Source: Plasmodiophora brassicae
Taxonomy: Eukaryota
Reading direction: 5' to 3'
NCBI GenBank assembly: GCA_036867785.1
Contig: CP145412.1
Span: 1,426,001 to 1,490,000 of the forward strand
DNA: 64,000 nucleotides
The translations under genes were made by a program, and so were the position numbers. This document shows positions 3,222 to 54,678 of the stretch, piece after piece. The notes beneath the pieces are model-generated. The model searched no databases. It was not told where the DNA came from and was given only the letters and a program-made list of their open reading frames with translations. Numbering within the stretch: the stretch's first letter is position 1; each line of letters begins with the position of its first letter.

Positions 3222-3765
3222 CGTGGCAAGGCTGACGTCGTCGTCGTGGAGACGTGGATCGATCAACGTCATTCTGTAACTGTGTTATTGCGTACCGTCA
3301 AGAGTCTGCAGACACGGGACTACAGACGTCCCCGTGGCTCTTCTTCGTCGATCCCAGAACCTTCTGCTTCAGCTCATGTCGCGAGTGGCTCATGCGATCC
3401 GCGATCACTTTGGCAACCTTGTCCAGCGTGTGTTTGGTCGCTGCAATCTCCGTATTCAGCAGGCACTGCCCGCTGCAACCTCCGTGTTCAGCAGGCACTG
3501 CTGGCCGTGACGTTGGCAAGTACCGGGCAGTGCCTGCTGAATACGGAGATTGCAGCGACCAAACACATGCTGGACAAGGTTGCCAAAGTGATCGCGGATC
3601 GCATGAGCCACTCGCGACATGAGCTGAAGCAGAAGGTTCTGGGATCGACGAAGAAGAGCCACGGGGACGTCTGTAGTCCCGTGTCTGCAGACTCTTGACG
3701 GTACGTAATAACAGAGTAACAGAATGACGTTTTCCCGTCTCCACGACGACGTCAGCCTTGCCACG
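3222..3765. repeat. Long inverted repeat (arms ~3222-3472 and ~3524-3765)
   Basis: The arms are near-exact reverse complements. ORFs 3246+ and 3298- encode almost the same peptide. Confidence 0.95.
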
Positions 3766-5741
3766 GCTAGTCGTGGTCCTTTCGGTGCCATACTCTGACA
3801 CTCACAACAGCCACGCATCATGGAAGCTGTTAGACAAATGCATATGATGCTGGCAATTTGTGCAATCGGTCTGGTGGCACACAAGACGATACCATGGGCA
3901 GCGGCGTCTTGTGACGGGATTGCCCTGGTCCGGTGGCCGTCAACGGGTGACCACGTTGTTTGCTCGGTGGAGTTTAAAACGTGTGTAGCCCCAGGTACGC
4001 TCGAACAGGCCTTTGCAGTGCGCGAGCACCTAGGGGAACTCATCGTCGTTGAGAACGTTGGCGATCCACGGTGGTTTGAGAGCATTACAGAGGACCACCG
4101 AGCTCAAGTCCTGCATCAAATGTTCGTGTCAGGTCTCAAGCACTTTGTGTATGTACGGGCTTCGATGACCGACATTATCTATTGTGTCCTCGGACGGGCT
4201 TCGGACGACGCTATTGACCGCTTCGGGAGGGCTGTTCTATCTGTCGGTGAGTCGCTTCTCTCGTGGGCCCATCCGACTGGAGACACCAGCGAGGTAGTGA
4301 TTCCGAACTGGATTGACGAATCGGACAAGCGTCTTCTCCAAAGTCACCTTCCCTTTGGCGAATGGTTCAAGAGCACGTCAACAGAAACGGTCCTCTGGTT
4401 CCTATCGAGACGTTCAAGCACGCCGCTCAGGTCCTGTACTGCAGGATCAAAGGCGGCGTCGATAAGGCCACATTCGACGTCAATAAAATTCGATATCCAA
4501 AGTCGAAGCTTGGATTTGAGGCCAAATACGTGACCCATTTGCTGTACCAGGCATGTGGCCTCAACGCATGCATTGCCTACAGGTGACTTGTGTACTGATC
4601 TGTACGGGATCTCCGCTGATACATACTTTGTCTGTCAGGTACTGGACGTACCAGAAGGAATTAAGCGACCAAAATAGATCGCTTCCAAGTCTGAAGAGCG
4701 TCCGGCGTGAGCTCTCGTCGATGGAAGCGTTTGAAGACTTCGTCATCGAGGCAGGTCAGGAGATTGTCCGCCGAGGTGATGACCTCGGGGCACTCTTGTC
4801 CGGAAAGGGCGTGGAAGAGCAGCGCCCCAACCTCAGCGAGCAAGCTGTCGCTGACCTGCAAGCGAAGATTCCCAAAGGACGTGTTTTGCGCTTCTTCAGC
4901 ACTGACGATGGATGGCTGCTGAGGTTTACTCAATTGCATCCCGGTCAGTTGTCATACTAATACCACCTTTAGGAGCTCTGGAACGCACAGAATGGAGAGG
5001 ATAACCCGAGATCCTCTGACCGACATGCCCTTAACCCGGTCTGTACGACGTTGTGCGCTCTGCGTTCGCGAGACCAGTAACTACTGTCATGTGTGCCGAC
5101 AATTCCTGTGCAACGTTGCGCCCAAAGACGGCACCCACCGGGCCTGCTCCACAGATTTCCATTTCTTGCGGGAATTGCCGTCAACGAAGAGGAAGGACAT
5201 CGTCAAGCGCGCTTACCGTATGAAGCCGGGTGAGAGGGAAGAACGGTCACGGCGCGCTAGCCAACTCGCTGCATCAAAGAAAGCTGTTGCGAATGATAGC
5301 GCCAGCGTCGATACCGCCTCCCCTGCCAATGAATTACAAGTGGAACAGCTTGTTAAGCGCCGCAGAGGCCGCCCGAGAAAGCGTCCCCGGCCAGGCACAT
5401 CCGATGAAATCGCTGTTGCGCCAGGTATGTCCCTTCGGAATATTCGTCGTTCAATGATTTCGATTAGCACACTTACTTTTGGCCTAGATTCTGGAGGTGT
5501 ACCAGCAGATGCTCAGAGTAGAAACCGAATTGATGCACCGGCAGATTCGGCTCCGGCAACAACCAGTTCAGGCCACCTTGCCGGCACACCTGCTCGGGCA
5601 GAACGCCCAGAAGCTGTTGCCAACCTCGAGGACAGCCGTGTGCATAAGCGTCAGTGTCTAGAGGCATCTGACGATGTCCCTTCCACCCCCGGTACTTCTA
5701 GAATGATATATATTGAAGAGAGGATGTGGACTGAGCTCTAA
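3524..5741 (+). mobile_element. 5'-truncated piggyBac-like transposase relic with YqaJ-like nuclease domain, C-terminal Cys-rich domain and AT-hook
   Basis: AASCDGI..VEFKT..HRAQVLHQMFVSG (YqaJ/lambda-exonuclease motifs); YCRIKGGVDKA (piggyBac-type YNxxKGGVD); CALC..YCHVCRQFLC..CSTDFH; RRGRPRK. There is a 1-nt frameshift near 4355. Confidence 0.7.
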
Positions 5742-6301
5742 TTTGTTCTCGGTTGCTCTCGTTCAGGAGGGACTCAGGCAGGAGCCCACTATGCGACGGA
5801 TGTTAGTGGTCGCCGACCAACTACCCGCTCTGCTACGCGAGGAGGCTACAACTGAATCTTCTGACATGTTACGGTTGCATGAAGAATGTCCATGAATGAA
5901 TGAAAATTCTCTCTTTTTCTACGCAGGTCGGAGTTGCACGGGCTTTGTGAGGGACACTCGAAAAATCGTAGTGTCGCCATCGAGCGCAGTCATGACTTCG
6001 TTCTTGCGTCCAGCCGCAGTTATCGGCATGGAGTCTATGCCTGGATTCACAATCGAAATGCTGTCTTCAAGGATGCGTCCGTTTCTGCATTCTATGAGAC
6101 CAGATACAGGCAGAGGTAGGTATAATCATCCCAATACTCATGCCAGTGCTGACATGTCTCTTCTTTCACCCGATTCACATTTCTCAGGAGATGGTTCCGA
6201 CAGAATCGAACCTAGCGAACCGCCGCCCCCGAACGCAACGACAAACGGTCTCACTAGTGAACCGTTCGGATCGGAGCTGGAGCGCTGGAAGTTCTAAACG
6301 T

Positions 6302-9300
6302 TTATGAGATGATCGCGTTCATAGCGTGTTGGAGGTACCGGCTGAGTTCAGGATTGTCGGTCGCGGTGTCATGCAGGTCAGATAGGGCCGCGAACAGGGC
6401 CACATCCGCCTGCGCTCGACAGCAACGAGAAATGGCTTGCGCGATGATGGCCAGGGAGCCGCCATCAGATGCCGGGCATAGCTGCAGCATTCGTCCCAGG
6501 ACGATATGACTGGACGAGTCAGCCTGCAGGTGGCCACACAGCCTCATAATAGCGGGCAGGTCACCTTCGTTATGCTCCTGCGTTGACATGTCAGGGGTCC
6601 AACAAGGGCACCCAGTGCATGCAGAATATCAGCACATACCATGGTTCCCTCGGCATCGGTTAACCAGTCGGTTAGAGTAGCGGATGTCAGTGCAAGGTCG
6701 ACATGGAGATCACCGACGACCCGAGCTAAGCGGGCGGCAACCGGGAGCGACAGCCGGTGTCGCAGCGACCGAAGGCGATGGAAGAGCAGAGCGCACTGAG
6801 CGCGAACGCCCGCCGAGCAGGACATGGACAGGAAATGGACCGTCACCCGGGCTAGGCACGACATCGCACCTGAACGTGATACCGTCAGCGGCAGCTGGAC
6901 ACGAGGCGCAACGTTGCAGCACATTACCGTCTTCTTCGATGTTGGCATGAATGAACGACAACAACGAATGCTTCTCAACCAGATCGGAACGGCTTCTCTG
7001 GACGTCGACGGCGGCTTCAAGAAGAGCCCACAACTAGCAACGTCGTTAGCGAGCACGTAATACAACGAGGCCGGCACCGTACCGGCTGTATGTCTCTGCC
7101 AACAGCATTGCTGTTGGCCAGCTGGGCATGCAGCGTCAGGATTCTCGGCCATAGTCCCGATTTCGCCATCGTCCGGGCCGAAGTATAATCAGACAGGCCG
7201 TCCGCCCAGCATTGCACGATCCACTGCATCTGACGCACCGGTTGGAAGGGATCGTTCATCTGGAACTCGTCTGCGGATGCGCTGCGTCAGCTGAAGGAAT
7301 CGGCGAGGGTCAGCAGGTGGCCCTACCTGGGATCTTGCGAACAGGCAGCCAGGCCCGGCGGGCGAGTATCGTCGACACGGTCTTGTACATCGGGTGGGCA
7401 GTACCCTTTCGCGAAACAACGCATTCGAACAGCGAGGCCCACAGCGATGCTGTTAACGAGGGGATCACAGGCAGGTCGGCTTCCCCGTCGTTGACGTCAC
7501 CGTCATCATCCTCGTCCGTCGTCACGACCGAGTTCCGAACAAGTTCGAGCAGGAGACGCGCCTAGCATTCAGTCAAACGACCGGCGATGAACAGATGGGT
7601 TCCGCGTTGCACCTCGCTGCTTAAAGACGTCGAGCCGCACGACTGGACGCGATGCAAGAACGCGTACGAGCACGAACGGACATCGATACAGGCACTGCAC
7701 AGGCCACCTCGAATCACAAAACTGATGATGCCACAGTCTGCCAGAGGAAGCACATTTAGTCCAGGACGCTTCACGGGAACGCCGAAGTACCAGAGATCTT
7801 GGCTGGCAGGGGACCGTTCAGGTCCGATCGGTCGAGAGCCGCTAGTGCCGCGGGGACTATCCAGCGTGGGTCGCCTCGGTTCTTCTTCACAATCGGGCGA
7901 ACGCAATCCCAGAACCACTCGTTGTTGTTCCTTCCCGTCTTGTCACCGTCCAGCACCGAATACCCTTCGGCTGCGCTGCCGAATCGACGACCATGCAAGT
8001 CGAACGCCAAATGCCGATCTATTCATCAGCGCACTTAGACTGGGCGTGGTTATTCGGCAAACGGTGTTGGTACCTGCGGCCGCGAGGCAATCATATCGTA
8101 GCAGGTCCAGTTCAGACAATGTCGCCCCATAGGCACGTAGCACCTCGTTGACGAGCTCAGCCGTAATTTCGGACCGTGTTTCCCAGGCAAGACATGCCTT
8201 TCGCAAAGCGTCAGGGTTGTGAACCCATTCGATACTGTCGCCTGCGTCCTAAGGCCTCCGTCAGCACCGTTGTTTGCAAACTGAACATGCGCCACCTTGA
8301 ACCGTACCATTTCGTCTTCTAATACTCCGATGACACGATTCAGTTCATCGTCCATCCATTGGGGGACTGCAATTCCGATTGAAAACAGATCCTGGATATC
8401 CACTTTAGAGAGGCGACAGCGCAATTTGCCACAGGCACACCTTCTTAGCCTTTCCAAAGCGTTGGGGGCCTCCCTCGGCCAGGTATAGTTGACGAAGAAA
8501 CTCTTCAAGTGGTTCGTTATCGAAACAGGTCCTGGTCAGAGTCGACAGCACGTCGCGGTCCAGGTCGCGAGACGCAATGAAATCGTCAACAGAGGGGGCA
8601 TCGCACGCTAGGACGCTTTAGTTGGTTGTTCCTGAACGGCAAATCATCACGCGAAGTGTACCTTGCCACCGCGTCGGGACCAATGCTCGAACTAGAGGGA
8701 AGTGTGCCAGATGCTGCTGGGCCAACTTCAAACGATGCAGCACCGGGATTGACGGTGCTTGAATAATGATGGCAGAGCAGCAGGCCTCGTCAGACAGTTC
8801 CGGCACAGGGAACCGTAGTGAAGGGAACCGTCTGGCGACAAGCGCACGCACCATCTGTACGAATTGTTGGTTCAGACACGCTACCTATTGCCGGATGAAC
8901 GCCTGCACCCACCTGCGAGTGCACGTTACTGGAACTCGGGTTGTGCTCCTTCCATGCACGTGCAAGTTCGTCATTGACAGTGAGAAGCAATGCGACGTAT
9001 TCGTCATCTGCCGATACAGGATTCTTCCCCAGCAGTCGAACGAGAAGCTCGTGACGATCGACACTGCGGAATGCTGTCGTCGACTAAGATACGATGCCGG
9101 CAGGGTAGGACAAGCATAACAGACCTTCCGTGCGCAGATTGACAACGTCGTCGTCGCTGGGCCGAACTCGTTTCGACATGCGTGCACCTTCGTCATCAGT
9201 CGGCGTGGCCAGTCCAAGGGCGCGCACAAGTGCAGAGACTCTCACGAACACGCGCGGGTCACAGGTGGTAACCAGGGAACGTAGAAGCTCCTCCCCAGGG

Positions 9301-11063
9301 ACGTTACCTAGTTCCAAGCGTGTCAGAATCGGCCGGTCTAATTACTCTGGCAACACAAACGAACCTGGGCGTGGCGCATTGCACAGCATTTCGAGGCGCA
9401 TGAAGTCGGCAATGCGATCTCCGCCAACGATACGAGATGCAAACAGGGACCAAGGGGCATCACGGGGCAGCAATGAGGCCTCGATGTAGGCCCGAATGCA
9501 GGACAGCCACAGGGGGTCATCGGGAGACGAGGCGCTCCTAATGACAACCTGCGAATCAGGTAACATCGCCAGCGCCTACTCGCACGGGTTATGAACGATA
9601 TGAAGAGACGTCCCATAGCGACATACCTGTTTTGAGCAACGACGCGCGAGTGTGACAACGATGCGTTGTGCAAGATGCACGACGAGGGGACTCTGTCGTT
9701 GGAGGGCAGACGACAGGACAGCCTTTGTTACTGGAGCCGGGAGCGCATCCTTGTCGGCATTAGATGGTAACGGCAGGCTTCGAAGCAACTGGTCCACAAA
9801 GGTCGCGTTGCAGACGTAGCGGAAGGACAGACGTGGCTCAAGAGAGAATCGAAGGGCGGCCAGGTACGCAGACAGCACCACTGGGGAGCACAGATCCGAC
9901 TAGCGTTCGGGAATGAGGTTCACGATTCGACGCGATTCGCAGGCAACGGCGTACCTTGACCCAGTCGAGAACGATGGATCGCTGCTGGTTCGATGTGAAC
10001 ACGTCGAGGCTAGTGGCAGCGCGAACGGCGAGCGCGGTCGGCGTCTGGTTCGTCAGCAGTATATCTTGGAACAGTTTCAAGGCAAGCTCAGCCTAACTGG
10101 GCAGTTAGCACACTCATAATAGCGACAGCTAGCGAGCAAGCTGTCACCACCTTTCTGTCACCACCAGCGAGCAGATTTGTGCAACGACTCAGTACCGTCC
10201 CCGACAGCACAGGCGCCTACAAGCAGGAAGAATCATAAATCACGAGCGACGAGAAGGCATATTCTGCGCATACGAAAAGCTTGGTGTGGTTCGCAACCGC
10301 GTCGACGAAGACGCTCATTTGCGGTGCTGACAAAGTTTCCACATTCTGAAGCGTTAAGCGGGCCAACGCAGCAGCACCGTCAATTGTGAGCGCGACTCTG
10401 TCAGAGACCATGGGCACTGGTTACATCCCGATGCCTGGACAGAGAAAACAGTGGACGTACCTCGGGCATTCTTGAAGAGCGTTGATAATCACATGAGTAG
10501 TCGCCGGCGTACTATGGCGCCACACGCGCTGGCTCCTGGAATCAGCATCAGAGAGGGTGTCCTGGTGTAGCAAGAAGGAGCGCTGACCAGTTGATCCGAC
10601 GCAGGATGTTGTGGCCACAGCGCTTTACAACAAGGCTGCACAGCTGGACAGCATTCCTTCTAACGTTCTTGTCGTCTGACGCTAGATGCGACGCGATCTG
10701 CCCGTAGACTTGAGCGGAACAGCAGAACTCGGCGACGGTCCTATTAGCCGTTATTGTGGTTCCATACGACGGTATGGGTAGCGATTATTACCTGATCTGT
10801 TCTCGACATGTATCACAGCTGTGCATCAGGAGCGAAGAAATGCAATAGAATGTGGCAGAGACGGTTGCAACCGGGACACTAGGGCCTCGCGTAATAACGG
10901 AAAACAGTTCGGTCGCGCATGGCGACACCTTGAGGTAGGCATGCAGGGTACGGTAATTATCGTCATGCATAGACCGCGATAGACGCTCAACATTGGACCG
11001 TATGCGGTCAGAGGGACTGCCCTGAATACCCACAAGAATGTCATGCAGACTTTCGTCGGCCAT
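6302..11063 (-). CDS. URB1: Nucleolar pre-ribosomal-associated protein 1 (Npa1/URB1), multi-exon
   Basis: N-terminal YLKVSPCATELF. NopRA1-like C-terminal motifs YGATLSELDL, IPSLTASLWA..HPMYKTVSTIL..KIP and WIVQCWADGL. Confidence 0.75.
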
Positions 11064-11900
11064 GGTGTTGTTACCGTGTCCGCAATGACCGCCACGGAGT
11101 CCGCCACGGAGTCCTCAGTCAGAGGGCAGTAATGGAAAAGGTCGCGGCCTCGCTCAACCCCTGGGTGCCCCCAATGCATCGTCCATCCTCCGGGCCATCG
11201 GCCATTGCCAATTGCCCATTCGTATTGCCAATTGCCCATTCGCAATCGTCCAAATGCCCACCGATTCCTTATTACCCGTTGATCACACACCACTGCCAAT
11301 CGCAATCTGATTCCATCGTCTTTGCCCAATTGTCGTTATCCGTTGGGTCGGATAGTACGATGCAATTTCCCAGGTTGACTGTATACGCCGAATGGACGGG
11401 AAGTCGGGGCGTGGCAGATCGGGCAGTGCGTCATGGTTAGTTCGCCCATTTGGCAGGTTGGCATTATGAATGTGCACCTTACGTTTGCCTGGCGTGCAGA
11501 ACAACTTCAAGCAGAGGACGCGTTGGCCACGTGATACTTTGCTTCGTCGAATCCATTGGCATTACTGGAATCCCTTTTGAGCCGCCTGGAGTTCCTGACG
11601 TCTCAAAACGATTTTGGGGTACTGATCGATAGGTAGCGTCAATCTCCTCATCACACTCGTGGGGGGAACCGTCGAGCACTTGGACTCGTCGAAGCGACTC
11701 AGAGCAGCACGACATCTACCTAGTCGCGTATGGTGCATGACTGAGCGAAAGTGAGGTAAGTGACGCTATCGCTCCTGGAATGGGCTGATAACACCCAGCA
11801 CGTCGTGCAGTACAACACGTCACAGCCAACCCGCTTCACGTATGTGTTTGAATAAAGGCGCCTGCATTCCACTGTCTATCTAGATTGGACACTCAGGCGC

Positions 11901-28590: not shown

Positions 28591-29043
28591 TCAGCATTGG
28601 TCGAGGCGCATCAGAAGCGCATGACGGCCGTCGCAATAGTAGTCGCAGATCTGCCCATGTGCCGTAAAGCCCTCGGACCGGTAGAGCGCCACGGCGGCAT
28701 GTCGTTCTGGGTCGACATGGAGCGACAACGTCTGGTACCGCGATCGCGCCCAGCGTAGCAGCCACCGTCCAACCCCATTCCTTTGAGCGGCGGCCGCCAC
28801 AGCGAGCTTGACAATGTGCCCAGTCCGACTGACGATCATGTACCCGACAGCGCCGCTGCCGTCGACAACGGCAACCACCATCGTCTGCGAGCGTTTCATC
28901 GCCTCCCTTTCCAGCTGCCCGGTCAGCGACTCGTGTTTCGGGAACAGACGCCGCTCAATGACGTCGCACTGCGCCACAAGCGCGGCATCGCCAGCAGGCA
29001 GGCGACGTTTGCTGCTGTCGATCTCTCTCAGGGCGCACTGCAT
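28591..29043 (-). CDS. RimI-like GNAT acetyltransferase
   Basis: HIVKLAV...QRNGVGRWLL (motif A), LSLHVDPERHAAVALYRSEGF, DYY.DGRHALLM. Confidence 0.88.
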   Translation of the reverse strand: MQCALREIDSSKRRLPAGDAALVAQCDVIERRLFPKHESLTGQLEREAMKRSQTMVVAVVDGSGAVGYMIVSRTGHIVKLAVAAAAQRNGVGRWLLRWARSRYQTLSLHVDPERHAAVALYRSEGFTAHGQICDYYCDGRHALLMRLDQC

Positions 29044-44412: not shown

Positions 44413-45134
44413 TCAGCGCTCGCTGTATTCGTGCACGACGAGGTCGACGACGAAGTCGTGCTCGGCGACGGGGACCTCCTCGACGACCTGCTGGTGCAGC
44501 GTCAAGCCGACGAGTCGTGGCATGGGCGACCCTCGCGTCAACGACGCCGCCCGCAACTTGGCCAACCATCGATCGTAGTACCCGCGCCCATGGCCTGTTC
44601 CACACGTTCAGAAACGAGGCACGACGTCGGCGACGTTGCTCTGTACCAAGGCGACGGTTGCAGGCGTCGAACGCAAGCCCAGGCACGAAGACCACTAATG
44701 GGGAATCAGTTGCGGGTTCAGCCAGGGTTGCAGGACACGGTTGTACCGTCGAGGTCGCCAGCGTGTAGAGCGTCGTGCCGGTCAGCGGGCGGTTCACGAA
44801 TGCCCCATTTCGACTTGGGCAGCGCGTGTACGTCGTCCATGGAGTGCACCTGGACGACGGACATCTCGGGGAGGCCGTGCGCACGCGGCAGGTAGACGCG
44901 TTTACCGTCGAGGAACGCGCGTTCGATCAAGGCGGCGGTCTGGATCTCGCCGGCCGGCATCGAGTCGAACAAGGCGATGGCCGTACTGCTTCGCCAGTAA
45001 TCGGCCCGCGTGACACGCTCGGCGAGCAGCGCGCTCTGACGATGGATCTCTGACAGTTCCACCGCCTGCAGCGACCGACGCACCTGGTCCCGCATCGCCC
45101 TCTTCATCGCCGCCGATCGGTCTGCGGTCGCCAT
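44413..45134 (-). CDS. MTHFS: 5-formyltetrahydrofolate cyclo-ligase
   Basis: EIQT..LIE, GKRVYLP, WGIREP, VPGLAFD..RLG, DFVVD. Confidence 0.9.
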
Positions 45135-45634
45135 CGGACCCGGCCTGTGGTAAAATAGCGCGTTAATGTATGTTTTGGCCTCGGCAGACGGACACGTGAC
45201 GCGTGTTGGCTTGGCTGAGATGTCCCACGTGTGCAGATGGGTAGTCCGTGCGTGCGTACGCGTCTACGAGAGCAGTGGCAGCTGCATGATGTCGCGGCGT
45301 ACGTATTCTATAATTGGCGCCTGCTACTGGCGAAGCAAGCCCGCGCGGCTGCCCGTCGTGAATGGTCGTTGCTCTGCGGATTGTGGCCGTGTTCATGTGG
45401 GGCGCTTCGTCGTCGAAGCGCACCCGTCCTTACCGTTTCGGCAGCGCAGCGCCGTCCTGCTGCAGGACTACTGCTTGGCGATGGGCGCTCGTCGCGCAAC
45501 TTCAACGAGCTGCGGATGCGGCGCGTCTCGCACGTCGTAAACGCCGCTGCCGTGGAGATGCGGCCGCGTTTCGAGGATAAGGGCATTGGCGCATTGCGTT
45601 TGCGTACCTGAATCTGCGGATCAGCGACAAACCG

Positions 45635-47480
45635 TGTAACGAACTGCGGCGCACTTTCCGGCAAACTACGCCGTGGCGGGGTCCGTGGCGGCATTCCTGC
45701 GGCCGTCATTCTTGTTGAGTTTGCATTAAACCAGGCATCCTGTCTGTCGTCAGTGTGAGGCTCTCGCCAACACGGATTCAAAAGCCATCCCCGAGTCCCG
45801 TGTTCAGCACACGCAAACCCAACAAGAATTCGGGTTCATGACGACCGAGAACGGCGGTGATCGATGGCGCAGGCGCGCAGACCATTGGGGTCAAGGTCGA
45901 GGACATACTCAAGATCCAGTCGACGCTGGACGTCATCCTGGAGCGGCTAGAAGCGGTGAACGCGGGCAGGGCGGCCACGGATGCGACGGTCGCAGCGCTC
46001 GGGCTGGACATGAAGGACATCAAGGAGGTTGTCAGGAACCGGGCGGCGCCGCCGCAGGGACGAGACAACCAGGAAGTGGATGCAAGGGCGGATGGGAGCG
46101 GCGGGGACACCACAGAGCCCGGGACCAGACCACGAGCATCCTTGCGAGGAAGCGCTGCGCGTGCCTCGGAGCAACAGCATCAGCGGCGAGGAGTACGGAG
46201 GTGAAGGGCGTCAGGAAAGGAGGGGCCGCCGCGAAGGCTACGAACGTGACGACTGTCGTTAACCTCCACTCAAGATCCCGCTCAGGGAATGCGTGAGTAA
46301 TCCCTGGAGAAGCAAAGAGGAGGCAAAGACGTGGCTAAACGGAGCCATCGCGACGGTGCGACGGTTGAGGGCCTGTCGAGACGACATACAGGACTACGTC
46401 GTCAGTAAGCTGATGGAGCCGCAGCTACGTGCCCATGTGCTGGCGTCGGCCCGGCAGCTGCCGGACGCACCGTTCGTCGAGGTGCTAATCGACGCCAGGG
46501 ACAAGTTGATGGGTACCATGGAGACCCGGACGTGACGTTCCTGGAAGAGTGCAGCGCGAGCGCTGAAGCAGGGCGAACAGGAGACCATGACCGAATTCCT
46601 GCCGAAGTTGGAGACGGTGATTAACGAGTTCGTCGAAAACGATCCGGATCACGCCGGCGACGAGGAAATTTTCGATATCTACCTGGCAGCGATCAACACG
46701 GACACAAGGGCGGCCCTGGAGACGGAGCACCTCCTGTGGGCCCACCTGGACGTACGAGAGACCTATCTCGACAAGGTGGCGTACGTCCGAGAGTGCCTAT
46801 ACGCCAAGCGCGCCAAGGAGGACGACAAGCCGAAGAAACGGACGCTGGTCGGGGCGGTCTCACGGCCACCCGTTTGCAACACTTGCAACAGTCGGGACCA
46901 CTCCTGGAGAGACTGCGACCATGCGCGCGCCAAGGAGAGTTGCAGAGCATGTGACGGGGCGCAGCACTGCCGGTTCGAGTGCCCAAAGCGTAATGCCGGT
47001 CCGCAAGGGAGCCAAGACGCGAGGGCGAGCGGACCGACGGCACCGACAGCGGCAGCGGAGAGGCGGCCAGCAGAGGAGGCGCAAACGGGCGCGACGGCGC
47101 CCGCTGTGTCGTCCGGCTGACGGGGCGGGGCGGCCGCAGCCGCCCCAATCCCCGGGAGGACAAGGGGAACTGCGATCGGTCGCAGCGATCGAGAACGAGA
47201 TCGTTGGCGACCACGTGCACGCGGCAGTGGACATCACGGTGGGCGGTCTGCGCATGACGGCGTTGCTCGACACGGGGGCCGCGGTCAACGTCGCCAGCGC
47301 GGCCGGTGTAGGGGTAGGTAAGGAAAGGGGCGCTTCAGCTGGAGAACTCCGCTGTTCCGGCGTTCTCGACAGCTTGACCCGCGAAGTCCTCCAGCTGAAG
47401 CGCCCCTTTCCTTACCCCTACACCGGCCGCCAGCACTGCGCGCTGGCTCGCGACGTTGACCGCGCCCCCCGTGTCGAGCA
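45635..47480 (+). mobile_element. Truncated LTR (Gypsy-like) retrotransposon: putative 5' LTR, gag and start of protease
   Basis: Begins TG, ends CA and is flanked by an ACCG duplication (45631-34 and 47481-84). Two CCHC knuckles (CNTCNSRDHSWRDC, CRACDGAQHCRFEC) and protease ALLDTGA. Confidence 0.88.
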
Positions 47481-47487
47481 ACCGTCA
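47255..47487. repeat. Inverted repeat (arms ~47255-47344 and ~47389-47487)
   Basis: For example gtaaggaaaggggcgcttcagctggag pairs with ctccagctgaagcgcccctttccttac. Confidence 0.92.
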
Positions 47488-48095
47488 CAACGGATTTCGC
47501 AGCACTTTGACGAGGCTATTGCCTTGATGGAGCACGCCAGATCCGTCAATGGCACCGTGTTGGTCCACTGTGCGGCAGGACGTCAATATCGTTTCGCTAT
47601 GTGCACTGTTCCTGTTGCCAAACGAGATGGGTTCAGGCGTTAGCCTGTCAGCGACCATCGTGCTTGCGTATCTCGTGTCGCGTGGCTGGTCGTTAGCGTC
47701 GGCAATCGTGCATTAGCGTCGTATCCGGCTTAAAGTCTGGCCCAACCGCGGGTTCCAGGAACAACTGATTGAGTTCTCACAGCAATACCGCAAATCTACG
47801 CTGCAAACGGGCGTCATGCCTGTCGGATTCAACTCTTTGTTTCCAGTTCGTGATGTTCATAACCAAACCGTTCTGGGCGATTCCTGCCCCGTTCATCCAG
47901 CTGATCCCCGAGCAGGACTTGCCTGTACTGGCCGACGCTCTTCTCGCATGGATCGTCAACCCTGGCAAAGCCTGCCTCTACGCCGGTCGCACATAGGGCC
48001 CTTCTACGGAACGGCGCCATAACGTACAGCGACCTGACCCTGTTCTTCTCTGCTGGGGTATCTTCTGATATCCAGCACGACGTCCCACGGTTCCG

Positions 48096-50505
48096 CTAGC
48101 ATCTGGGCGTGTTTGTCAAGGCATTCGCCAGCGACAAGTTCGACTCGTTCTCCGGCGGGTCCTGCCCGGACAAGATCACAGACATTGATACGTATTTATC
48201 AATTACTTCCAACCGCTCGCATCGTACGTAACTCAGGACGCTGTTCTTGTCAGAACTGCCCCACAATGGTTTGATTGTCCAGTCGATGTCAAGAAGGGTT
48301 AATGCACGTTCGATACACAATGTTCTTAGGGACACTAGGCCTGGGTCCTACGTGCGGAAGAAGTTCATGACGGACAGGTCGAGTAGCGTATCTTGATTCC
48401 GCTCCACGAGGTCTTCCAGCAACAGTTTGCTGAATTGGCGATCCCGCGGTTCGTCTGTATCCCGCTGCAGATTGACAGCGAACAACTGGATGTGGTGATC
48501 CAGTCCACTTGTGGCAACACAGCTGACACCAAGAGCAGGATGCGCTCGGACACAGTTCAACCCTTCGAGAGAGTTTTCTCCCGCTTCGAGAAGGGCGATT
48601 GTTTCAGCACTCTCCGCGTCGTATACGAACACGGATCCGCAATCACTGGCGACGCCGACAATATCCTGGAGGAGCGATCAGGCCCTAGGCAACAAATCAC
48701 CGTGTCTGTACTCACTAACCTCAGAGAGGAACGTTGCCTCTTTGATAGATGTTCGAAAATTGCAGTGACCGGCCAGACGAGAAACGCTGCTCCCGATAAC
48801 CTGGGTCGCTGGGGACGGGGGGCGTTCGTCATCCCGAACCAGGAACCGCCGACGATCCGACGTGTCAGAAACGGCTCTGGCAAGATGAGTCGCAATGTCG
48901 GGATATTCCTTTGCGTACTGGATGCCCAGTCGGCGCGCTGCCTCGCATTCATGAAGCCCTGCCAGCGCTTGAACCCGTCTCAAAGCGGCCTTTGCACGAC
49001 CCATCCTACTGTCTACAGTAAACTCACAGTGGGACGACACTCACATCATCCGTCCTACCTGACTGATTCCGCTTCGCCAGTCAGAAGCTCCAAAGAGCGT
49101 TCAGCGTCGCTGAGCGCCATCGGAAGATCTCCCACCCATCTCCGTTTCTGAAGAATCAATATGAGGCTGGGGTCTTCCACAAACCCAGCTTCAATCTGCC
49201 TTACCAGAAGGGCGGTAGAGCGATTCGTTAACAACGTCGCACGAAGCTGCGGGCTCAGCTGGTGACTTCTCAGCAGGGCCTTCGAATACAAACCAATAGC
49301 GTCCAGCCAGCGCTCCTGGTGGAACCTGAACACACACCGGGTTGGGCACGTGGCGACGAGTGCGTGCATGGGCGTTCTTACTTTTCATTTCCTGCGGTTT
49401 TGAGTTGGAGACAGTAGGGCTCACACAGACGTTGATCACTGCGAGACGCAGAGTGCCGACGGCGACGCTTCCCCAGTCTAGCCGCACACGTACACGCCTG
49501 GTCGCAGGGCTTTACCGAATCAACGGGCCGGTCGTCTCCATTGACATCAAACACGAACGCATCGTCAGGATTGTAGTTCAGGACGATGCGCTTACCCGAT
49601 GGCGATATGTTAACACTAGTGATGGCAGCCACGCGTGAATTGCCATGGCGTACAAGGTGCCGTGCAACCCATCGCTTGACGGGCACCGTTTCACGGGACG
49701 AAGACCCGCCCAGGGAAAGCATCCGCCGATCCCACATGTCGGCATGAATACCGCTGGCCGTTACGATCAGGTTCGAGTCGAACGGCATCGCGGACACAGC
49801 CCTGAACTCCCATCGTTGACGTCGTTGGTCGATCAGCACGTTCCGCTGGCAGGATAAGGCCGCTGTGACATCGGTGCACAGCGACCCGCACGGTTTCAGC
49901 CGGTCATCCCATTGCCGAACAGTACCGTCTTTCGACGCGGACCAGAACACGTGTGACGGCTGATCCAGCGACTGCTCGATCTCGATAACGAAATCACGGT
50001 GGCACCTGTACTTGACCGGGGCCGACTGGTCCCCGTTCGTAATGCATACGGCGTGATCCATGGCGCCCGTCGCCATACGAGGCATCTCATTCGGCGCGTT
50101 CAGGAACCGGACTCCCAGGATATTGTGATGGTGCTCCTGACGTCGACCATGAATGACCCGGCCGCAACAGAGAAACCGAGCGCTTACGGTCTGGATTGTG
50201 TGCTGCAGGTTGAGGGTGGATCCGTCATCAACAGACCAGAGCCGAACCGTCCGATCATCGGACACGCTGGCAAGAACGTGTCCAGTCTTTGGATACCAAT
50301 GCAATCGATTGACGCACCCGGTATGGTGGATCTGGATCCGATCCTCCAGCGTCACCTCCGCCGGGGCCAGCCGCTTCGCGAATGTCCGATGATCCCGCAT
50401 CGCCTGGTACACGTCGCGTCCGACCGCCTCCCGTTCATGCAGCAGCGACGACAGGTGCACTCGGCCCGCGCACCCGCACGGCGGTATCAGATCGCCCGTC
50501 GTCAT
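48096..50505 (-). CDS. WDTC1: WD and tetratricopeptide repeat protein (adipose/DCAF9); 3' end uncertain
   Basis: HTGCVNRLHW..LASVSDD, FWSASKDGTVRQWD, a central TPR (KTAGNEK..AIGLYSKAL), GHCNFRTSIKEATFL, ATSGLD. Confidence 0.85.
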
Positions 50506-51298
50506 CGCAGCAACCACCGACTACGGTAGGGTACCAAACGGGAATGACCGGCTGGGAATATTCCGCAGGTGCGGGGCTGCCGTTTGCGGGGGCCACCGGC
50601 CACCCGCGCGGCGCGCCCTGCGGCATCATCCGCGGACTCGACGCCCGACGGGACTTGCGCGCACTCCAACCAGTCGGACTGGTCCGAATTGCGCGTTAAA
50701 GTGGCGACCGGGCCACGCAAAGATAACTACCGTACCTACAGTAGGTAGTAGGAACCTGGGCATTGTATGTGCGTGTCGCGGCTACGCAGACGTGGACGCG
50801 GAACGAGCTGCTGCCCATCGGAGGGGGGGGGGGGGGGGCACGAGATGCGGCCAGCAGGTCCAGCCGGTCACCGGGCTGACTTGGATCCATCCGCTGACCG
50901 ATGACGACATTCGGTGGCATAAGTCTGAGCTTCGTGATGGGCCGCCGCCAAGTACCTATACGCACCACCCGTGCGCACATGGCGTTTGTTCGATGCATTT
51001 TCGGGAGCATGGCGTTCTCACTGGGGCCCTGCAAGTTCTTGTCGCGGAGCATTGATGACGTCGGCGTCCTCGAGGTCCATAGCGACCTCTTGCACTCAAA
51101 GCGCTGCGCGGCGCTCCGCGATCTCGGCCTCGAGCAGCGCACGGCGGTCAGGGAGAGACATCGCGATGAGTTCGAGTCGCAGCGCGCCGCGCTAGACGTG
51201 GAATACGAGAACCGCTCGTTCGTTCCCGTTGTGTTCGATTGGTGGGACCCGTCAGACGCAGAAGGTTCTCCAGACTCTAGAGCAGTGCCTATGGTTCA

Positions 51299-51948
51299 AT
51301 GTCCGTGACGGGACGGTCTCCGGGATCTCATGACGTTCGACACCGCCCAATGAGGTCCTCCATTGATCTCCAGTCGTCAAAGAAGCCATCTTCATGTTGG
51401 AGAACATGCTGCTGCATATTTTTGCCCATTGCTGTCATCGCCGGCGCGCTAATGGCAGTCTACTTTCCTGATACGCATCCACCAGCAACGTTGTCGTTCG
51501 TTGCGAACGGATTCGTGGTAACGCCACGGCAGGTCGAGTTGTATGGTGAATGTGACCTGCTGCTCACTAATCGCAATGCCTACGACTTCGAAATACGTCC
51601 ATCGATCATCCGGGTTAGTCACAACGGTACGTGCTGTGCGATACATTCATACAATACGCGGGCTGAAGGATGCCAGGTGCCCTGTTGCGAGAGCTGGAGA
51701 CCGGAACAGAGGTCTTCCCAGCGGGGCAAAGAACAACGATGAAGATCCCGGTATCGGTATCCGCCAATGTCGCAACGCTGGACGTCGCCGCCTCCATCTT
51801 GTACAATTGCCAGCTGGTCGACAACGCTCCCGTCCGGTTCGACATCGATGGCGTCATCTTCGTAACAACTTGGTTCTTACCCTTCAATGTGAGGATCCCA
51901 TTGTCGACCTACCGGAACATCCCCTGCCCGCCTATCACTGGACGCTAG
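51299..51948 (+). CDS. LEA_2-like single-pass membrane protein
   Basis: Cys-rich CCC before a TM helix, an N.NAYDFEI motif and a beta-rich domain; one intron. Confidence 0.55.
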
Positions 51949-52078
51949 TCACAACCACGACCTACACAGGTAGGTGGTTAAAGCAGACTACCTAAAGACT
52001 TGTGAGTTAACACTTCATAAGGCTCATCTTTATGGAGAGAGTTGGAGGCATTCCGTATAGGTTGTTTGACCCGGACAA

Positions 52079-53515
52079 TCAGCGACGGGCGCGAGCGTTC
52101 CTCGCGCCACGAGCTGAGCCACCGCCGCGCTTGCTCGGCTTCGCCTTTGCGCTACGTTTCGGGCGATAGTCGTCATCGTCAGAATCGTCGCTGTAGTCGT
52201 CGTCGCTGTCATCATTGTCATAAGCACGAGCACGAGCCTTTGAACGGCGACGGCCACGAGGTTCGTCATCGTCAGAGCGATCACCGTCACTGTCATAATC
52301 GCGGGCGCGCACCTTGCGTCGGCCGCGGCCACGAACATCTTCGTCGCTGTCATCGCTCTCGTAGTTATCGTCGTCACGAGTCGTAACGGCCCTCTTGAAG
52401 TTCGGCGCCCTGTTGTCGAAGTTGTTGTTGTAATAGCTCCTTTGAGGGCGCCCTCCGCGCTGCTGAGGGCCACGCCAGTTGCCACCGCGACCCCGGAACC
52501 CACCACGGCCGTAGTTGTTGTTGTAGTTGTTGTTGTAGTTGTTGTAGTACCCAGGCTGGAAGAACCGGCGCGGCTGTCGCCGCTCATCCGGTGCATACGA
52601 GTCGCGCTCCTTGTGGGCCATGCCGAGCCGAACGTCCGCGTTGTTGATCTTCAACGGTTTGTCGCGAGGTGCCAGGACGGCCTGCGCCGCTGCTGCCCTG
52701 TCGAACAGGACGTAGCCGAACACAGTCGCCTCGGGAGTCCCGACCTTGTGGGAGATCAGGCGCACGTTCAAGACCTTGCCGTTCGGAGACAGAGCGTTGT
52801 ACAGCATCTTTGGTGTTGTCGATTCCGGCAAATCACCGACGAAGACGGTTCGCTCGTAGTCGTTCGGGTCCTTGACGATGTCGGTCGCTGCAGAACCCGC
52901 TTCCGACGCATCGTCAGCCGCAATAGCACTATCGGCAGCCTGATCGCCATCCGCATCGACCACCTCGTTCTCTTCTTCGGCATCGAACGCAGCAGATTCT
53001 TCATCGATGTCATTCGCCTTGGCGACGCCCTCTTTTGATGACTTCTTCTTGCGGAACTTGTTCCATTTCTTCTTACCGCCTTCTTCCTCAGCGTCATCAT
53101 CGTCAGGCATCTCTAGATCTTCATTGTCCAGCGCATCGCGCGCTTTCGCGACCGTCCGTTGCGTTTCTTTGCTCTGGCGCTGGCCGGTGGCCGGTATTGC
53201 GTCATCGTCATCCTCGTCGACATCCAAATCGGCCGTGTCAAGGTCGTCCTCGTCGATGTCGTCCTCCTCATCGGACCACACGATCTGCTCATCGTCGTCG
53301 TCATCGTCATCATCGTCACGCAGGGCACCGAACGCCGGCTTCGTCGACACCGCCGCGAAATCATCATCGTCCTCGTCGTCGGCCGCACGTGCCAGCGCCG
53401 CCTTCGGGCCGCTCGTGCTCAGCGATGCGAACTTCGCTGACAGGTGGCTGGCGATCGACGTCGATCGTAGGGCGGTGATACCGCGGCCCAGGCGGCGCGC
53501 AACGATGCCGTGCAT
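52079..53515 (-). CDS. Acidic RRM/RGG RNA-binding protein with possible mitochondrial presequence
   Basis: RNP2 TVFVGDLP, RNP1 FGYVLF, RGG boxes, Asp/Glu tracts, and an Arg/Ser/Ala-rich acid-free N-terminus. Confidence 0.8.
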   Translation of the reverse strand: MHGIVARRLGRGITALRSTSIASHLSAKFASLSTSGPKAALARAADDEDDDDFAAVSTKPAFGALRDDDDDDDDDEQIVWSDEEDDIDEDDLDTADLDVDEDDDDAIPATGQRQSKETQRTVAKARDALDNEDLEMPDDDDAEEEGGKKKWNKFRKKKSSKEGVAKANDIDEESAAFDAEEENEVVDADGDQAADSAIAADDASEAGSAATDIVKDPNDYERTVFVGDLPESTTPKMLYNALSPNGKVLNVRLISHKVGTPEATVFGYVLFDRAAAAQAVLAPRDKPLKINNADVRLGMAHKERDSYAPDERRQPRRFFQPGYYNNYNNNYNNNYGRGGFRGRGGNWRGPQQRGGRPQRSYYNNNFDNRAPNFKRAVTTRDDDNYESDDSDEDVRGRGRRKVRARDYDSDGDRSDDDEPRGRRRSKARARAYDNDDSDDDYSDDSDDDDYRPKRSAKAKPSKRGGGSARGARNARARR

Positions 53516-54359
53516 GGGTCCGTGCTGCGCGTTTGCTGAAGACGACCGCGGGCCCCCCACAAACCGAATGGCCCGACGCCGCAACCCCCCACGGAGTGTG
53601 CAGCGGCACTATACCGTACAGCTGCAGCAGCTGCAGCCTCGCAAGTCCGCCTACGGCAGTACGTACCTACAACCACGGCGGCGGAGGCCGGGGACCGCCC
53701 ACGGCGCAGCGTGCACACGTAACGTGACGACGGATGATCCCGGACCGGGCCCATGATCCGTTTCGTTACGCACGGCGATTGCCGTCGAGCTGTTTTGCCG
53801 TCTGCCGTCTGTACGAGGATATGCTTGTCGCCGGCACGTTCCCTCGGCGGGTACACAGGCGCTGCCGGTCCTCTGAAGGCCATGGCTGCAGCTGTATCAA
53901 TACACGTGGCAGTTCGATGAGCGACATGTGTATTGACGAGGTATTCCGGCTGGCAAGTACTATGGGAAGGGCTGCCGCCCTCAGTCCTGACATGCGATGG
54001 CCACGAGCACCCCCCTTGAAGCGCTGAGTGTCCGGAAGCGGTCACCGCTGCAATCGACGCTCACCGTCTGGACATATACCTACCCAGCGAGATCCGAGAC
54101 AGTCAGCACAAATACAATGGCAAGTCGCGCAGGGTGCAGGTGCCGGCCGAGGTCGTCACGATGATCCTGCGCGATACGTACGCGATCCTGCAGGAAATGA
54201 AGAAACGCGTAATCCGATGGTTTTAATGCATAGATCAGCAGCTGCTGAAGATCAGGACCTATGCGGACCTGCGCTGCACCCACCACTATCTGACGACGTT
54301 CTACCGGCCAAGCGCCGTCATCGATACCCGACAGTCAACATAAGTACGACGGCAAGCCG

Positions 54360-54678
54360 CAGAGCATGAAGATGACGATCTACGTAGGTGGATTTTCGAT
54401 AGCCGGGACGCAGGGATAGGTACTACTTTAAACTACCGCCGAATTTCTCTGCAGTGGGACTCATGAACCCTTCGTCTAGGAATTTCGCTCAATAGCCTGT
54501 AGATTGGAGCAAGTTGACATACATGCTGCTTCCGGCTATTGAGCGAAATTCCTAGACGAAGGCTTCATGAATTCCACTGCAGAGAAATTCGGGGGGGGGG
54601 GGTAGTTTAAAGTAGTACCGATCCCTGCGTCCCGCCTATCGAAAATCCACCTACGTAGATCGTCATCTTCTTGCTCTG
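54360..54678. repeat. Inverted repeat (arms ~54360-54497 and ~54534-54678)
   Basis: gaagatgacgatctacgtaggtggattttcgatag pairs with ctatcgaaaatccacctacgtagatcgtcatcttc, and the rest of each arm pairs likewise. Confidence 0.95.

Follow-up and report, generated by a model that had tools for sequence, protein, structure and literature searches.

Inverted duplications primed by fold-back of a DNA strand at a break are established in yeast (accessible text of PMC11724301 and PMC7467729), and snap-back synthesis is known from alternative end joining in Drosophila (accessible text of PMC5728401). In maize, Mu killer, as described in the available part of PMC3440606, provides the precedent for a hairpin small-RNA locus. 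According to published work, Plasmodiophora brassicae has RNAi and lacks an RNA-dependent RNA polymerase (RdRP). Here we describe inverted duplications (fold-backs) in the window, by which we mean the whole 64-kb stretch of P. brassicae DNA that was analysed. They are probably scars left at different times by fold-back-primed break repair and surviving in dispensable DNA.

Fold-backs of the 64-kb window

The window is a gene-dense stretch. Its few dispensable patches are made up of truncated fragments, namely the pogo-like, piggyBac-like and Gag-protease relics, an orphan ORF and fragments of 28S rDNA and of a phosphatase gene. At five of the fragment ends, the sequence doubles back in a significant short-loop inverted duplication: I4, IR1, the 27.6-kb hairpin, IR2 and IR3. 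The features are as follows.

2200–2975, plus strand: pogo-like (DDE_1) transposase relic, degenerate, with stops and frameshifts and two collinear sub-threshold Pfam DDE_1 matches
2790–3172 (core span 2807–3156): fold-back I4; arms about 2790–2975 and about 2985–3172, almost no loop
3222–3765: fold-back IR1; left arm 3222–3471, loop and right arm about 3498–3765
3672–3725: 54-nt multi-copy stretch of the IR1 right arm, mirrored at about 3271–3324 in the left arm; ~16 copies
3805–5282, plus strand: piggyBac-like transposase relic, 5'-truncated, with an embedded YqaJ/lambda-exonuclease-like domain; located by tblastn with protein P0006
27652–27733 (core 27656–27729): small fold-back, the 27.6-kb hairpin; arms about 32 nt, E 4e-9
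27773–28671, plus strand: 28S (large-subunit) rRNA fragment, degenerate (RF02543, 382.9 bits, E 1e-100)
45842–47366, plus strand: Gag-protease relic, LTR-retroelement-like; two CX2CX4HX4C knuckles, then a D-T-G-A protease motif
47255–47487 (alignment 47262–47482): fold-back IR2; left arm contiguous with the Gag-protease relic, right arm its inverted copy
47490–47640, plus strand: dual-specificity-phosphatase fragment, 5'-truncated, directly abutting the IR2 copy arm
54360–54678: fold-back IR3; right arm contiguous with a 124-codon minus-strand ORF, left arm its inverted copy
54539–54910, minus strand: orphan ORF of 124 codons, the 3' third of which forms the IR3 arms

Each fold-back consists of two inverted arms and a short spacer, set in flanks that are unique within the window. 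The arms are about 35–270 nt long, with identities between 66% and 98%. In none of five block-shuffled copies of the window did an ungapped, symmetric scan (score >=14, loop <=300) recover an inverted repeat, which excludes chance, and there are no direct repeats within the 64 kb at E 1e-5. As RNA, all five fold into long stems, with z values against shuffles of -7 to -40. The four large fold-backs each touch coding sequence of repeat origin. The 14 ORFs with a host-type Pfam family, a set that excludes the phosphatase fragment abutting IR2, are clear of all five, in agreement with the earlier note, which saw no such structures in host genes. The inverted repeats that it had reported at 3222–3765, 47255–47487 and 54360–54678 are likewise present, although its count of three has to be raised to five by the addition of 2807–3156 (E 4e-19) and 27656–27729. 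Its description of the repeats as near-perfect fits only the IR1 core, at 98%; IR2 and IR3 are about 78–86% identical.

Relics and parental arms

The pogo-like relic is cut off about 20 codons past the third catalytic Asp motif, as read in the translations, and it is single-copy: one 21-kb contig of baseline depth crosses it in two isolates. Its sub-threshold Pfam DDE_1 matches have E values of 0.024 (profile 2–34) for 2434–2649 and 0.027 (profile 81–134) for the inverted arm. Translation reveals that the same DDE_1 segment is encoded by both arms of I4, which align with a gapped identity of 66% over 366 columns, including a 58-nt core at 86%, and fold with z = -11.9. In I4 the parental sequence is on the left and its inverted copy on the right, and this fold-back is the oldest of the set.

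A gap of 50 nt separates I4 from IR1, and the two face each other. The ungapped core arms of IR1, 3265–3472 and 3524–3731, are 98% complementary with 51 nt between them, the gapped identity over the whole structure is 88.6–91.5% and the RNA fold has z = -39.7. The homology fades outwards, with indels: the core contains at most one mismatch in about 180 nt, and the outer 75 nt harbor three substitutions and four indels. At the turn, a 32-nt unit, A (3440–3471), is repeated as A' (3472–3503). Two paralogous proteins, P0001 and P0002, match the right arm (81% over 48 aa, extending up to 66 aa through the loop). Their homology ends near 3498, the hairpin centre, where both proteins continue with other residues. 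Since the homology takes in the right arm and loop and goes no further than the centre, these are the parental part and the left arm is the copy. What IR1 duplicates is a multi-copy coding segment. The contig of the 54-nt stretch, which has four differences from the window, reaches a depth of 2712 versus about 165 in isolate X10 and 1104 versus about 70 in isolate X8, and loose contig ends at the mirror places 3325 and 3671 lead into other sequence. In the flanks read, neither IR1 nor IR3 shows a target-site duplication or a sharp terminus.

Beside IR1, tblastn aligns residues 465–918 of P0006 (1091 residues) to 3805–5282. A profile of 32 relatives matches the piggyBac structure 6x67 (E 1.6e-16), piggyBat 9c0f (E 1.4e-14) and the exonuclease 3syy (E 7e-5), and the resemblance to piggyBac-type transposases of solved structure, which extends to the C-terminal Cys-rich domain, points to membership in the piggyBac superfamily. 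Single relatives alone gave no PDB match to piggyBac-type transposases, and Pfam assigned no piggyBac family to the relic or the relatives scanned; Pfam YqaJ was present in four of the eight proteins scanned. The relic carries a frameshift at 4353–4356 in this isolate, is single-copy as judged by its baseline depth and has degenerate ends that are not recognisable. RNA contigs lie over it at 3935–4494 and 4971–5422.

The Gag-protease relic is truncated just past its D-T-G-A motif. Pfam matches to it fall below cut-off (Asp_protease_2, E 0.042; RVP, E 0.066), with no zf-CCHC match, and the nearest named Atlas clusters, zf-CCHC and Retrotrans_gag at 0.92, serve as a lead only. Neither reverse transcriptase nor integrase was found in the ORFs scanned around 45.8–49.4 kb, and the window contains no direct repeat that could represent an LTR; none of these would be expected if the element was truncated after the protease. 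Both arms of IR2 encode the protease motif in translation. They show a gapped identity of 77.6% (E 2e-30), with best ungapped cores of 90% over 41 nt, differ by indels of 4 and 11 nt, enclose a loop of 18–28 nt and fold with z = -18.9. The adjoining phosphatase fragment matches DSPc in Pfam (E 7.4e-6, profile 48–84 of 133), below the gathering score.

In IR3, the arms have a gapped identity of 84.7–86.4% (E 4e-89 at 84.7%) around a loop of 26–36 nt, with a G10 run in the right arm; tblastn with the orphan ORF matches both arms, and the RNA fold has z = -33.7. The ORF, at most a putative transposable-element protein, resembles a helix-turn-helix domain by eye only. It matched no Pfam family at E<=0.1 (best, BrkDBD at 0.18) and no PDB entry, protein searches at near and longer lengths returned no relatives, and its AlphaFold model (pLDDT 39) is unusable. 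No support for a pogo/Tc1-mariner DDE_1 identity of IR3 came from the Pfam, protein or PDB searches; the DDE_1 signal sits in the relic at 2200–3172.

The remaining fold-back, the 27.6-kb hairpin, lies 40 nt upstream of the rRNA fragment, which corresponds to model positions 665–1888 of 3401 and is situated between host genes. Its RNA fold has z = -7.3 and -9.4 on the two strands, and Rfam returned only sub-threshold miRNA-shaped matches to it.

Probable break repair and its alternatives

In fold-back-primed repair, a DNA end would be resected and its 3' single strand would fold over and pair with a few complementary bases on the same strand; a polymerase would then copy that strand outwards for about 35–270 nt, and the extended end would be joined to whatever lay across the break. 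The expected product is a parental arm, a short parental loop and an arm copied in inverted orientation, beyond which the DNA is unrelated. We infer the break and the priming microhomology themselves. In I4, IR2 and IR3, one arm reads on in frame into the remainder of the relic and its partner runs out into unrelated sequence; in these three as in IR1, one arm and the spacer are parental and the other arm is a copy. At the turn of IR1, A' followed by A would represent the first 32 copied bases made twice, which fits two priming rounds at the same template start, and the facing arrangement of I4 and IR1 is like two ends of one break region. Because arm identity spans 66% to 98%, such events would have recurred at different times, and the scars would persist since the DNA is under no constraint.

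The earlier note had proposed that a repeatable repair or template-switch process caps breaks in transposable elements (TEs), each repeat lying at the truncation point of one. The anatomy, with the IR1 homology stopping at the centre and five structures at graded identities, favours the repair process. The element labels fared unequally: the piggyBac-like label beside IR1 holds, the Gag-protease label draws on motifs, sub-threshold Pfam matches and the Atlas lead, and no search confirms the pogo-like label for IR3. The process may not be TE-specific, as one fold-back lies 40 nt from an rDNA fragment and a phosphatase fragment abuts another, and a simpler null is that scars survive only in dispensable DNA. 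Genes make up 66% of the genome (PMC4471660) and TEs 5–14% (PMC11191646; preprint 10.64898/2026.10.14.759018), so TEs would account for about a sixth to two fifths of the non-genic DNA. That three of three or four of four fold-backs touch TEs is mildly above this neutral-survival null (p about 0.005–0.07, a rough, post hoc estimate) and counts against simple repair scars. So do three further observations. A single neutral event does not account for the contrast between the core and outer parts of IR1, for which a further event, gene conversion or selection is required; five fold-backs within 64 kb are more than one would readily expect of rare repair accidents; and the arms are longer than most snap-back insertions on record, which in the accessible text of PMC11724301 are mostly 5–34 bp.

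A reading that keeps the same repair origin, and that the earlier note had put forward in outline as an anti-transposon memory, holds that the hairpins are retained as small-RNA loci: read-through transcripts would form dsRNA, the Drosha-like PbDRL would cut it to 21-nt siRNAs and AGO would use these against related elements, amounting to a heritable memory of the Mu killer kind in a species that lacks RdRP. The siRNA idea is plausible because RNAi is present, RdRP is absent and the source of dsRNA is unaccounted for. If transcribed, the long hairpins could be cut by a Drosha-like nuclease, as a by-product and not as a demonstrated function. The long stems of all five structures (z -7 to -40) would suit this role, as would the IR1 core, a nearly perfect stem of about 180–208 bp that is far better kept than the outer part. 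As in a silencer locus, mobile-element coding sequence is inversely duplicated, namely the DDE_1 segment in I4, the protease motif in IR2 and the multi-copy segment in IR1; part of each IR1 arm matches the ~16-copy repeat, and the two paralogous proteins match at 81%. In addition, an RNA contig (2257–3122) takes in the whole left arm of I4, together with most of its right arm, at a depth of 3.5, at which genomic DNA carry-over is possible, and 21-nt phased small RNAs from loci that are mainly intergenic, then TEs, are described in the available part of PMC13547706. However, no RNA contig is listed over IR1, where bin depths are 1.6–5.5 compared with 50–120 for genes. K-mer depth shows the pogo-like and piggyBac-like relics to be single-copy, leaving I4 with no close target, and the relatives of the IR1 arm, only 81% identical at the protein level, would share few perfect 21-mers with it. 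Moreover, the arms of IR2, IR3 and I4 carry many mismatches and indels with no bias to wobble-compatible changes. We therefore consider retention for small-RNA production rather unlikely.

Extended to the organism as a whole, the idea would make genome-encoded fold-backs the missing dsRNA source in P. brassicae, which has Argonautes and a Drosha-like nuclease, and neither Dicer nor an RNA-dependent RNA polymerase. Young and still nearly perfect ones, such as IR1, would yield siRNAs against their parent families, and old and decayed ones, such as the 27.6-kb hairpin, would be the loci scored as "palindromic" microRNA loci. We regard this proposal as doubtful. Were it true, break repair would have produced these sources at mobile-element fragments and at other ectopic ones, and if the whole genome, at 25 Mb, carried five per 64 kb, it would contain on the order of two thousand hairpins.

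It is quite unlikely that the hairpins were made by the elements' own machinery, whether as transposase hairpin intermediates resolved off-centre, by abortive gap repair after excision or by self-primed reverse-transcriptase second strands on aborted cDNA captured at a break. Four of the five fold-backs do involve transposase or Gag-protease coding sequence, a genomic rRNA fragment is most easily made via cDNA, and its hairpin lies at the sense-strand 5' end, where self-primed cDNA would fold. Alternative transposition is also reported, in the accessible part of preprint 10.1101/2020.01.07.897926, to have started siRNA-mediated silencing of Ac/Ds. The orientation, however, is inconsistent, with the fold-back at the sense-strand 5' end in IR1 and the rDNA case and at the 3' end in I4, IR2 and IR3. 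The same product would be needed from three unrelated enzymologies, the turns lie inside coding sequence, far from transposase cut sites, and no reverse transcriptase or integrase was found in 30 further ORFs away from the fold-backs or in the ORFs scanned beside them.

Long arms around a short loop are the form of Foldback-type elements. The inverted repeats could accordingly be small MITE- or Foldback-type mobile elements, bounded by long terminal inverted repeats and inserted beside older relics, and the ~16 genomic copies of the 54-nt part of each IR1 arm would fit such elements. Yet both of the relatives found (two of two) read straight on where the window copy turns back, no arm has a second copy within the window, I4 lies on a single-copy contig and no target-site duplication was seen in the flanks read. 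The arms consist of coding sequence for transposase or protease that runs on into the relics. Several paired-arm copies, sharp termini and target-site duplications, by which a Foldback or MITE family would be recognised, did not appear in the window and the two relatives, and we consider this origin very improbable.

I4 and the loop and flanks of IR1 are present in independent isolates from other studies, X8 and X10, which are roughly 1% diverged from the window (20 other letters per 3320 nt over I4/IR1 in X8, 35 per about 3320 nt in X10). Contigs of both isolates run straight through I4, crossing 2807–3156, and carry the IR1 loop: a 111-nt contig covers 3443–3553 in each, and the contigs of the flanks break off at mirror positions, the behaviour that identical arms impose on a k-mer graph. 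The flanks of I4 and IR1 lie on single-copy contigs of other isolates. All runs covering the place carry the structures, with no ancestral unfolded allele in the four read runs, and metagenome scans gave no matches. Thus, because I4 and the IR1 loop occur in contigs of two isolates and the other arms are too diverged, the fold-backs are not assembly errors. Displacement amplification and missed adapters are known to generate inverted chimeras, but such an origin is scarcely credible here: I4 and the IR1 loop and flanks recur across studies, the arms of IR2, IR3 and I4 differ by 14–34% with indels that an artefact would not yield, and unique sequence continues on both sides.

Comparison with known systems

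With Foldback and MITE transposons, the fold-backs share long inverted arms, a short loop and a multi-copy part of one arm. In contrast to those elements, they show no target-site duplication in the flanks read and no copies of the same hairpin within the window, and their arms are made of internal coding sequence that is continuous with a relic. A partial inverted transposase duplication by host genes and a potential read-through hairpin are shared with Mu killer of maize and natural TE inverted duplications (available parts of PMC3440606 and 10.1101/2020.01.07.897926). The Mu killer hairpin, however, is about 4 kb long, with proven siRNAs and a proven active target, whereas the arms described here are at most 270 nt, most of the relics are without close copies and any small RNAs from the arms are putative.

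In the model of plant microRNA birth by inverted duplication (accessible text of PMC3237417), young, long, near-perfect hairpins derived from coding sequence decay to imperfect short ones, and the fold-backs here, ordered as IR1, IR3, IR2 and the 27.6-kb hairpin, look like such a decay. The sources here, though, are mobile-element relics rather than target genes, and a microRNA output would be hypothetical.

The break-repair fold-backs comprise SD-MMEJ, Pol-theta-type snap-back synthesis and the foldback insertions and inversions of yeast (accessible text of PMC11724301, PMC5728401 and PMC7467729). Known insertions of this kind are mostly 5–34 bp, whereas the arms here reach 35–270 nt and are fixed in a natural population. 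Yeast foldback inversions run to the chromosome end; the fold-backs here are deduced from sequence, with no break or microhomology observed. What the two have in common is an inverted copy beside a break, a short parental spacer and an unrelated junction, and the repeated 32-nt unit of IR1 resembles repeated priming.

Inverted repeats in and around truncated elements

Inverted-repeat scans recovered all three repeats that the earlier note had placed in the window (IR1, IR2 and IR3) and added two that the note lacks, I4 and a small hairpin at 27.6 kb, bringing the fold-backs in 64 kb to five. The fold-back observation is thus real and larger than first reported.

Fold-backs of the window and the sequences beside them
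2200–3172, pogo-like relic, carrying I4
2807–3156, I4: globally aligned arms ~2790–2975 and 2985–3172, with hardly any loop; 66% gapped identity, E 4e-19
3222–3765, IR1: core arms 3265–3472 and 3524–3731, 98% complementary, ungapped, 51 nt between them; gapped identity over the full span 88.6–91.5%
3805–5282, piggyBac-like relic downstream of IR1
27656–27729 (27652–27733), small hairpin: E 4e-9
27773–28671 (+), degenerate 28S rRNA fragment of ~900 nt
47262–47482, IR2: gapped identity 77.6%, E 2e-30; inner cores 90% over 41 nt, 18 nt between them
47490–47640, 5′-truncated dual-specificity-phosphatase fragment (DSPc, E 7.4e-6)
54360–54678, IR3: identity 84.7–86.4%; 26–36 nt between inner arms

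The original description of these repeats as near-perfect applies to the IR1 core but not to IR2 or IR3. When the window was block-shuffled five times, a symmetric ungapped scan (score ≥14) returned no inverted repeats in any of the shuffles, and no direct repeats were found within the window at E 1e-5. A marginal inverted pair at 45708–45829 (17 nt with an 88-nt loop), just upstream of the Gag-protease relic that carries IR2, had a score of 14, the lowest kept.

The window consists mostly of host genes, with Pfam host-type families in 14 ORFs (G-alpha, cytochrome b5, lectin, glycosyltransferase 18, five WD40, RhoGAP/MyTH4, F-box, ankyrin, RRM and a weak TPR). None of the fold-backs overlaps these 14 ORFs, in agreement with the earlier note, which saw none in host genes. 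Pfam also assigned no transposon family to any of 30 ORFs away from the fold-backs, a blank that counts for little because Pfam is weak on the known relics of the window too. Contigs of one sequencing run, X15, skip introns of 53–84 nt at 6576–6926 and 17989–19866; the latter are GT..AG introns, indicating that X15 is RNA, while the former read CT..AC, indicating a minus-strand gene. These lengths are consistent with the introns of 60 bp reported for P. brassicae (PMC4471660).

Over 48 residues, the segment encoded by the IR1 arms shares 81% identity with P0001 and P0002, two paralogous proteins annotated in P. brassicae. On the plus strand the match reaches 66 residues by way of the right arm and loop and ends near 3498, beyond which P0001 and P0002 carry on with unrelated residues; the right arm and loop are thus parental and the left arm is the inverted copy. 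A unit of 32 nt at the turn (3440–3471) recurs at 3472–3503 with a few changes. A 54-nt stretch of the outer arm, 3672–3725 (mirrored at 3271–3324), has a contig depth of ~16-fold in two DNA runs, X8 and X10; the loose ends of its contig lead elsewhere, and its other copies are preceded by different sequence. The IR1 arm is therefore a patchwork of two repeated sequences. The 54-nt stretch begins with TG, homology to P0001 and P0002 stops just before it, and the stretch may represent the terminus of a different element. The IR1 core holds at most one mismatch in ~180 nt, compared with three substitutions and four indels in the outer 75 nt. Because the core is so much cleaner, we read the centre of IR1, from its sequence, as probably renewed later; gene conversion or selection would be the alternatives. 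Further copies of the IR1 arm repeat were absent from metagenomes by an exact 24-mer scan, and a metagenome protein-pattern scan with a three-sequence alignment matched 83 stretches, none of which was confirmed.

The relic at 3805–5282 aligns with residues 465–918 of a 1091-residue relative, P0006; the N-terminal 460 residues are missing from it. A profile built from 32 relatives matches the structures of the piggyBac transposase (E 1.6e-16), piggyBat (1.4e-14) and a lambda-type exonuclease (7e-5), and Pfam YqaJ was found in four of the eight relatives scanned. Thus, the earlier assignment of a truncated piggyBac-like element beside IR1 stands for the truncation and, at superfamily level, for the label, but its extension to the IR1 arms found no clear support: profile–profile comparison of the arm family (P0001, P0002) with the piggyBac-like family by hhalign gave a probability of 0.2% and E 0.33, and pairwise BLAST gave weak, inconsistently placed matches (best E 0.005 in a 152-sequence database). 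The relatives P0005–P0152 form a widespread family of ~1000–1400 residues that matches piggyBac at both ends and a lambda/YqaJ exonuclease in the middle. None of the papers listed on piggyBac and YqaJ describes such a fused protein, ISL2EU elements being reported to carry a separate YqaJ ORF (PMC4122938), and an Atlas search with P0006 led to one unnamed, oomycete-rich cluster and was uninformative. An extra T after 4353 is present in X8 and X10 and absent from the window and from a further run, X7, so the frame of the relic is polymorphic among isolates; with the extra T it stays open, like that of the 249-residue protein P0004.

The pogo-like relic at 2200–3172 gives two collinear, sub-threshold DDE_1 matches (E 0.024 for profile positions 2–34 and 0.027 for 81–134). 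In translation both arms of I4 encode one DDE_1 segment. The left arm is continuous with the part of the relic upstream of it; the copy is the right arm. In IR2 it is likewise the left arm that continues upstream, here as part of an ORF in which two CX2CX4HX4C knuckles are followed by D-T-G-A. These motifs and an Atlas lead to Gag/zf-CCHC would fit the LTR retroelement that had been proposed at IR2, but the Pfam protease matches are sub-threshold (0.042 and 0.066). The phosphatase fragment is joined directly to the IR2 copy arm; by eye, its Cys-X5-Arg spacing seems disturbed. In IR3, the right arm makes up the 3′ third of a minus-strand ORF of 124 codons, for which a pogo-like origin had been suggested. 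That label found no support: the ORF has no Pfam family, no significant match in protein searches (144 candidates at longer lengths, 3 at near lengths) and no PDB match, and an AlphaFold model made without an alignment is unusable (pLDDT 39). The copies of the IR3 arm differ in length by 7 nt at a G run, where ten Gs in the right arm (54585–54594) face five bases in the left, and the frame is shifted between the arms. The small hairpin lies 40 nt upstream of the 28S rRNA fragment (RF02543 model positions 665–1888, E 1e-100), between host genes.

Fold-backs in other isolates

The first 9.5 kb of the window was matched in 20 of 24 runs among those listed, from eight studies. Positions 1–20000, a region that covers I4 and IR1 and ends before IR2 and IR3, were compared with the contigs of four runs. 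X8 and X10, from different studies, differ from the window by 20 and 35 letters within the first 3.3 kb and are thus other isolates. In both, a single contig of ~21 kb starts before the window, spans the whole of I4 and ends at 3320/3324; a 111-nt contig covers the IR1 turn (3443–3553), and more contigs begin at 3524 or 3676 and continue into unique sequence. The contig ends around IR1 fall at mirror positions, as identical arms behave in a k-mer graph. Together these contigs place I4 and IR1 in independent isolates, and IR2 and IR3, whose arms differ by 14–22% with indels, cannot be chimeras. The concern that the hairpins are assembly or amplification artifacts is thereby largely answered by recurrence for one pair and by arm divergence for the other. 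No unfolded allele was seen in the four runs over 1–20000.

Proposed break repair, possible silencing and known systems

The four large fold-backs share a common anatomy, in which a parental arm and a short parental spacer are followed by an inverted copy that runs into unrelated DNA. The best-supported reading, which we consider reasonably probable, is that the fold-backs are scars of break repair. A resected 3′ end would fold onto its own strand and prime synthesis, giving this anatomy, and two rounds of priming at one template start would give the doubled 32-nt unit of IR1; we infer this mechanism throughout, including the break and the priming microhomology. Fold-back-primed synthesis is reported as established for short insertions and foldback inversions (PMC11724301, PMC5728401, PMC7467729). 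With arm identities of 66%, 78%, 85% and 89–98%, the events were probably separate and spread over a long period. The copy arms of I4 and IR1 end 50 nt apart, which prompted the idea that both came from a single two-ended break. It was dropped on the basis of arm identities of 66% versus 89%, though it would be viable given a later renewal of the IR1 core. Because genes are reported to make up 66% of the P. brassicae genome (PMC4471660) and TEs 5–14% (PMC4471660, PMC11191646, 10.64898/2026.10.14.759018), the TE share of non-genic DNA comes to about one sixth to two fifths. Three or four independent fold-backs, all within TE-like sequence, are only mildly above what survival in neutral DNA would predict, with IR3 classed as TE-like only provisionally.

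It has also been proposed that fold-backs which arose by repair were retained as hairpin sources of 21-nt siRNAs against related mobile elements. The idea is more attractive here than elsewhere, since P. brassicae is reported to have phased 21-nt small RNAs, two Argonautes and a Drosha-like nuclease, to lack Dicer and RdRP, and to produce small RNAs from a palindromic locus, and since the authors of that report, RdRP being absent, left the origin of siRNA precursors open (PMC13547706). Long RNA hairpins are predicted for all five fold-backs (z −7 to −40). Nevertheless, two of the relics are single-copy, which argues against a present-day target, and we regard retention for silencing as unlikely. 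The arm mismatch spectra show no wobble bias, and I4, with four SNPs among isolates, offers too few to judge selection on RNA structure. One RNA contig covers 2257–3122, at a depth of 3.5 versus 50–120 at neighboring genes. No RNA contig covers IR1 among those listed, which is not evidence of silence, as 274 further pieces lie outside that list and identical arms collapse in contigs.

Element-specific enzymology as the maker of the hairpins is quite unlikely, as the fold-back is 5′ in IR1 but 3′ in I4, IR2 and IR3 relative to the sense strand, one fold-back adjoins rDNA, and the patches that hold the fold-backs are pieced together from truncated fragments of unrelated origin. The repeatable repair process envisaged at the outset is supported by the shared anatomy and several ages of the fold-backs, but may not be restricted to TEs.

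The genome of P. brassicae is compact, at 25 Mb, and 64 kb of it hold five fold-backs that differ in age and are fixed across isolates. Under break repair, this suggests that the parasite either carries out snap-back repair with unusual frequency or tolerates it unusually well. Whether repair scars supply double-stranded RNA is a question raised by RNAi that operates without RdRP in this organism, the agent of clubroot, a major crop disease against which RNAi is under development. The word "inverted" does not occur in the P. brassicae pangenome preprint (10.64898/2026.10.14.759018) or the T2T paper (PMC11191646), nor does "hairpin" in the preprint. Repair fold-backs and hairpin-forming transposon duplications are both known, so these structures do not constitute a new class. 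They show two of the three defining features of fold-back repair scars, fall outside the Foldback/MITE transposons as judged from the window and the two IR1 relatives, and are alike in form to hairpin loci of the Mu killer type, as these are reported (PMC3440606).
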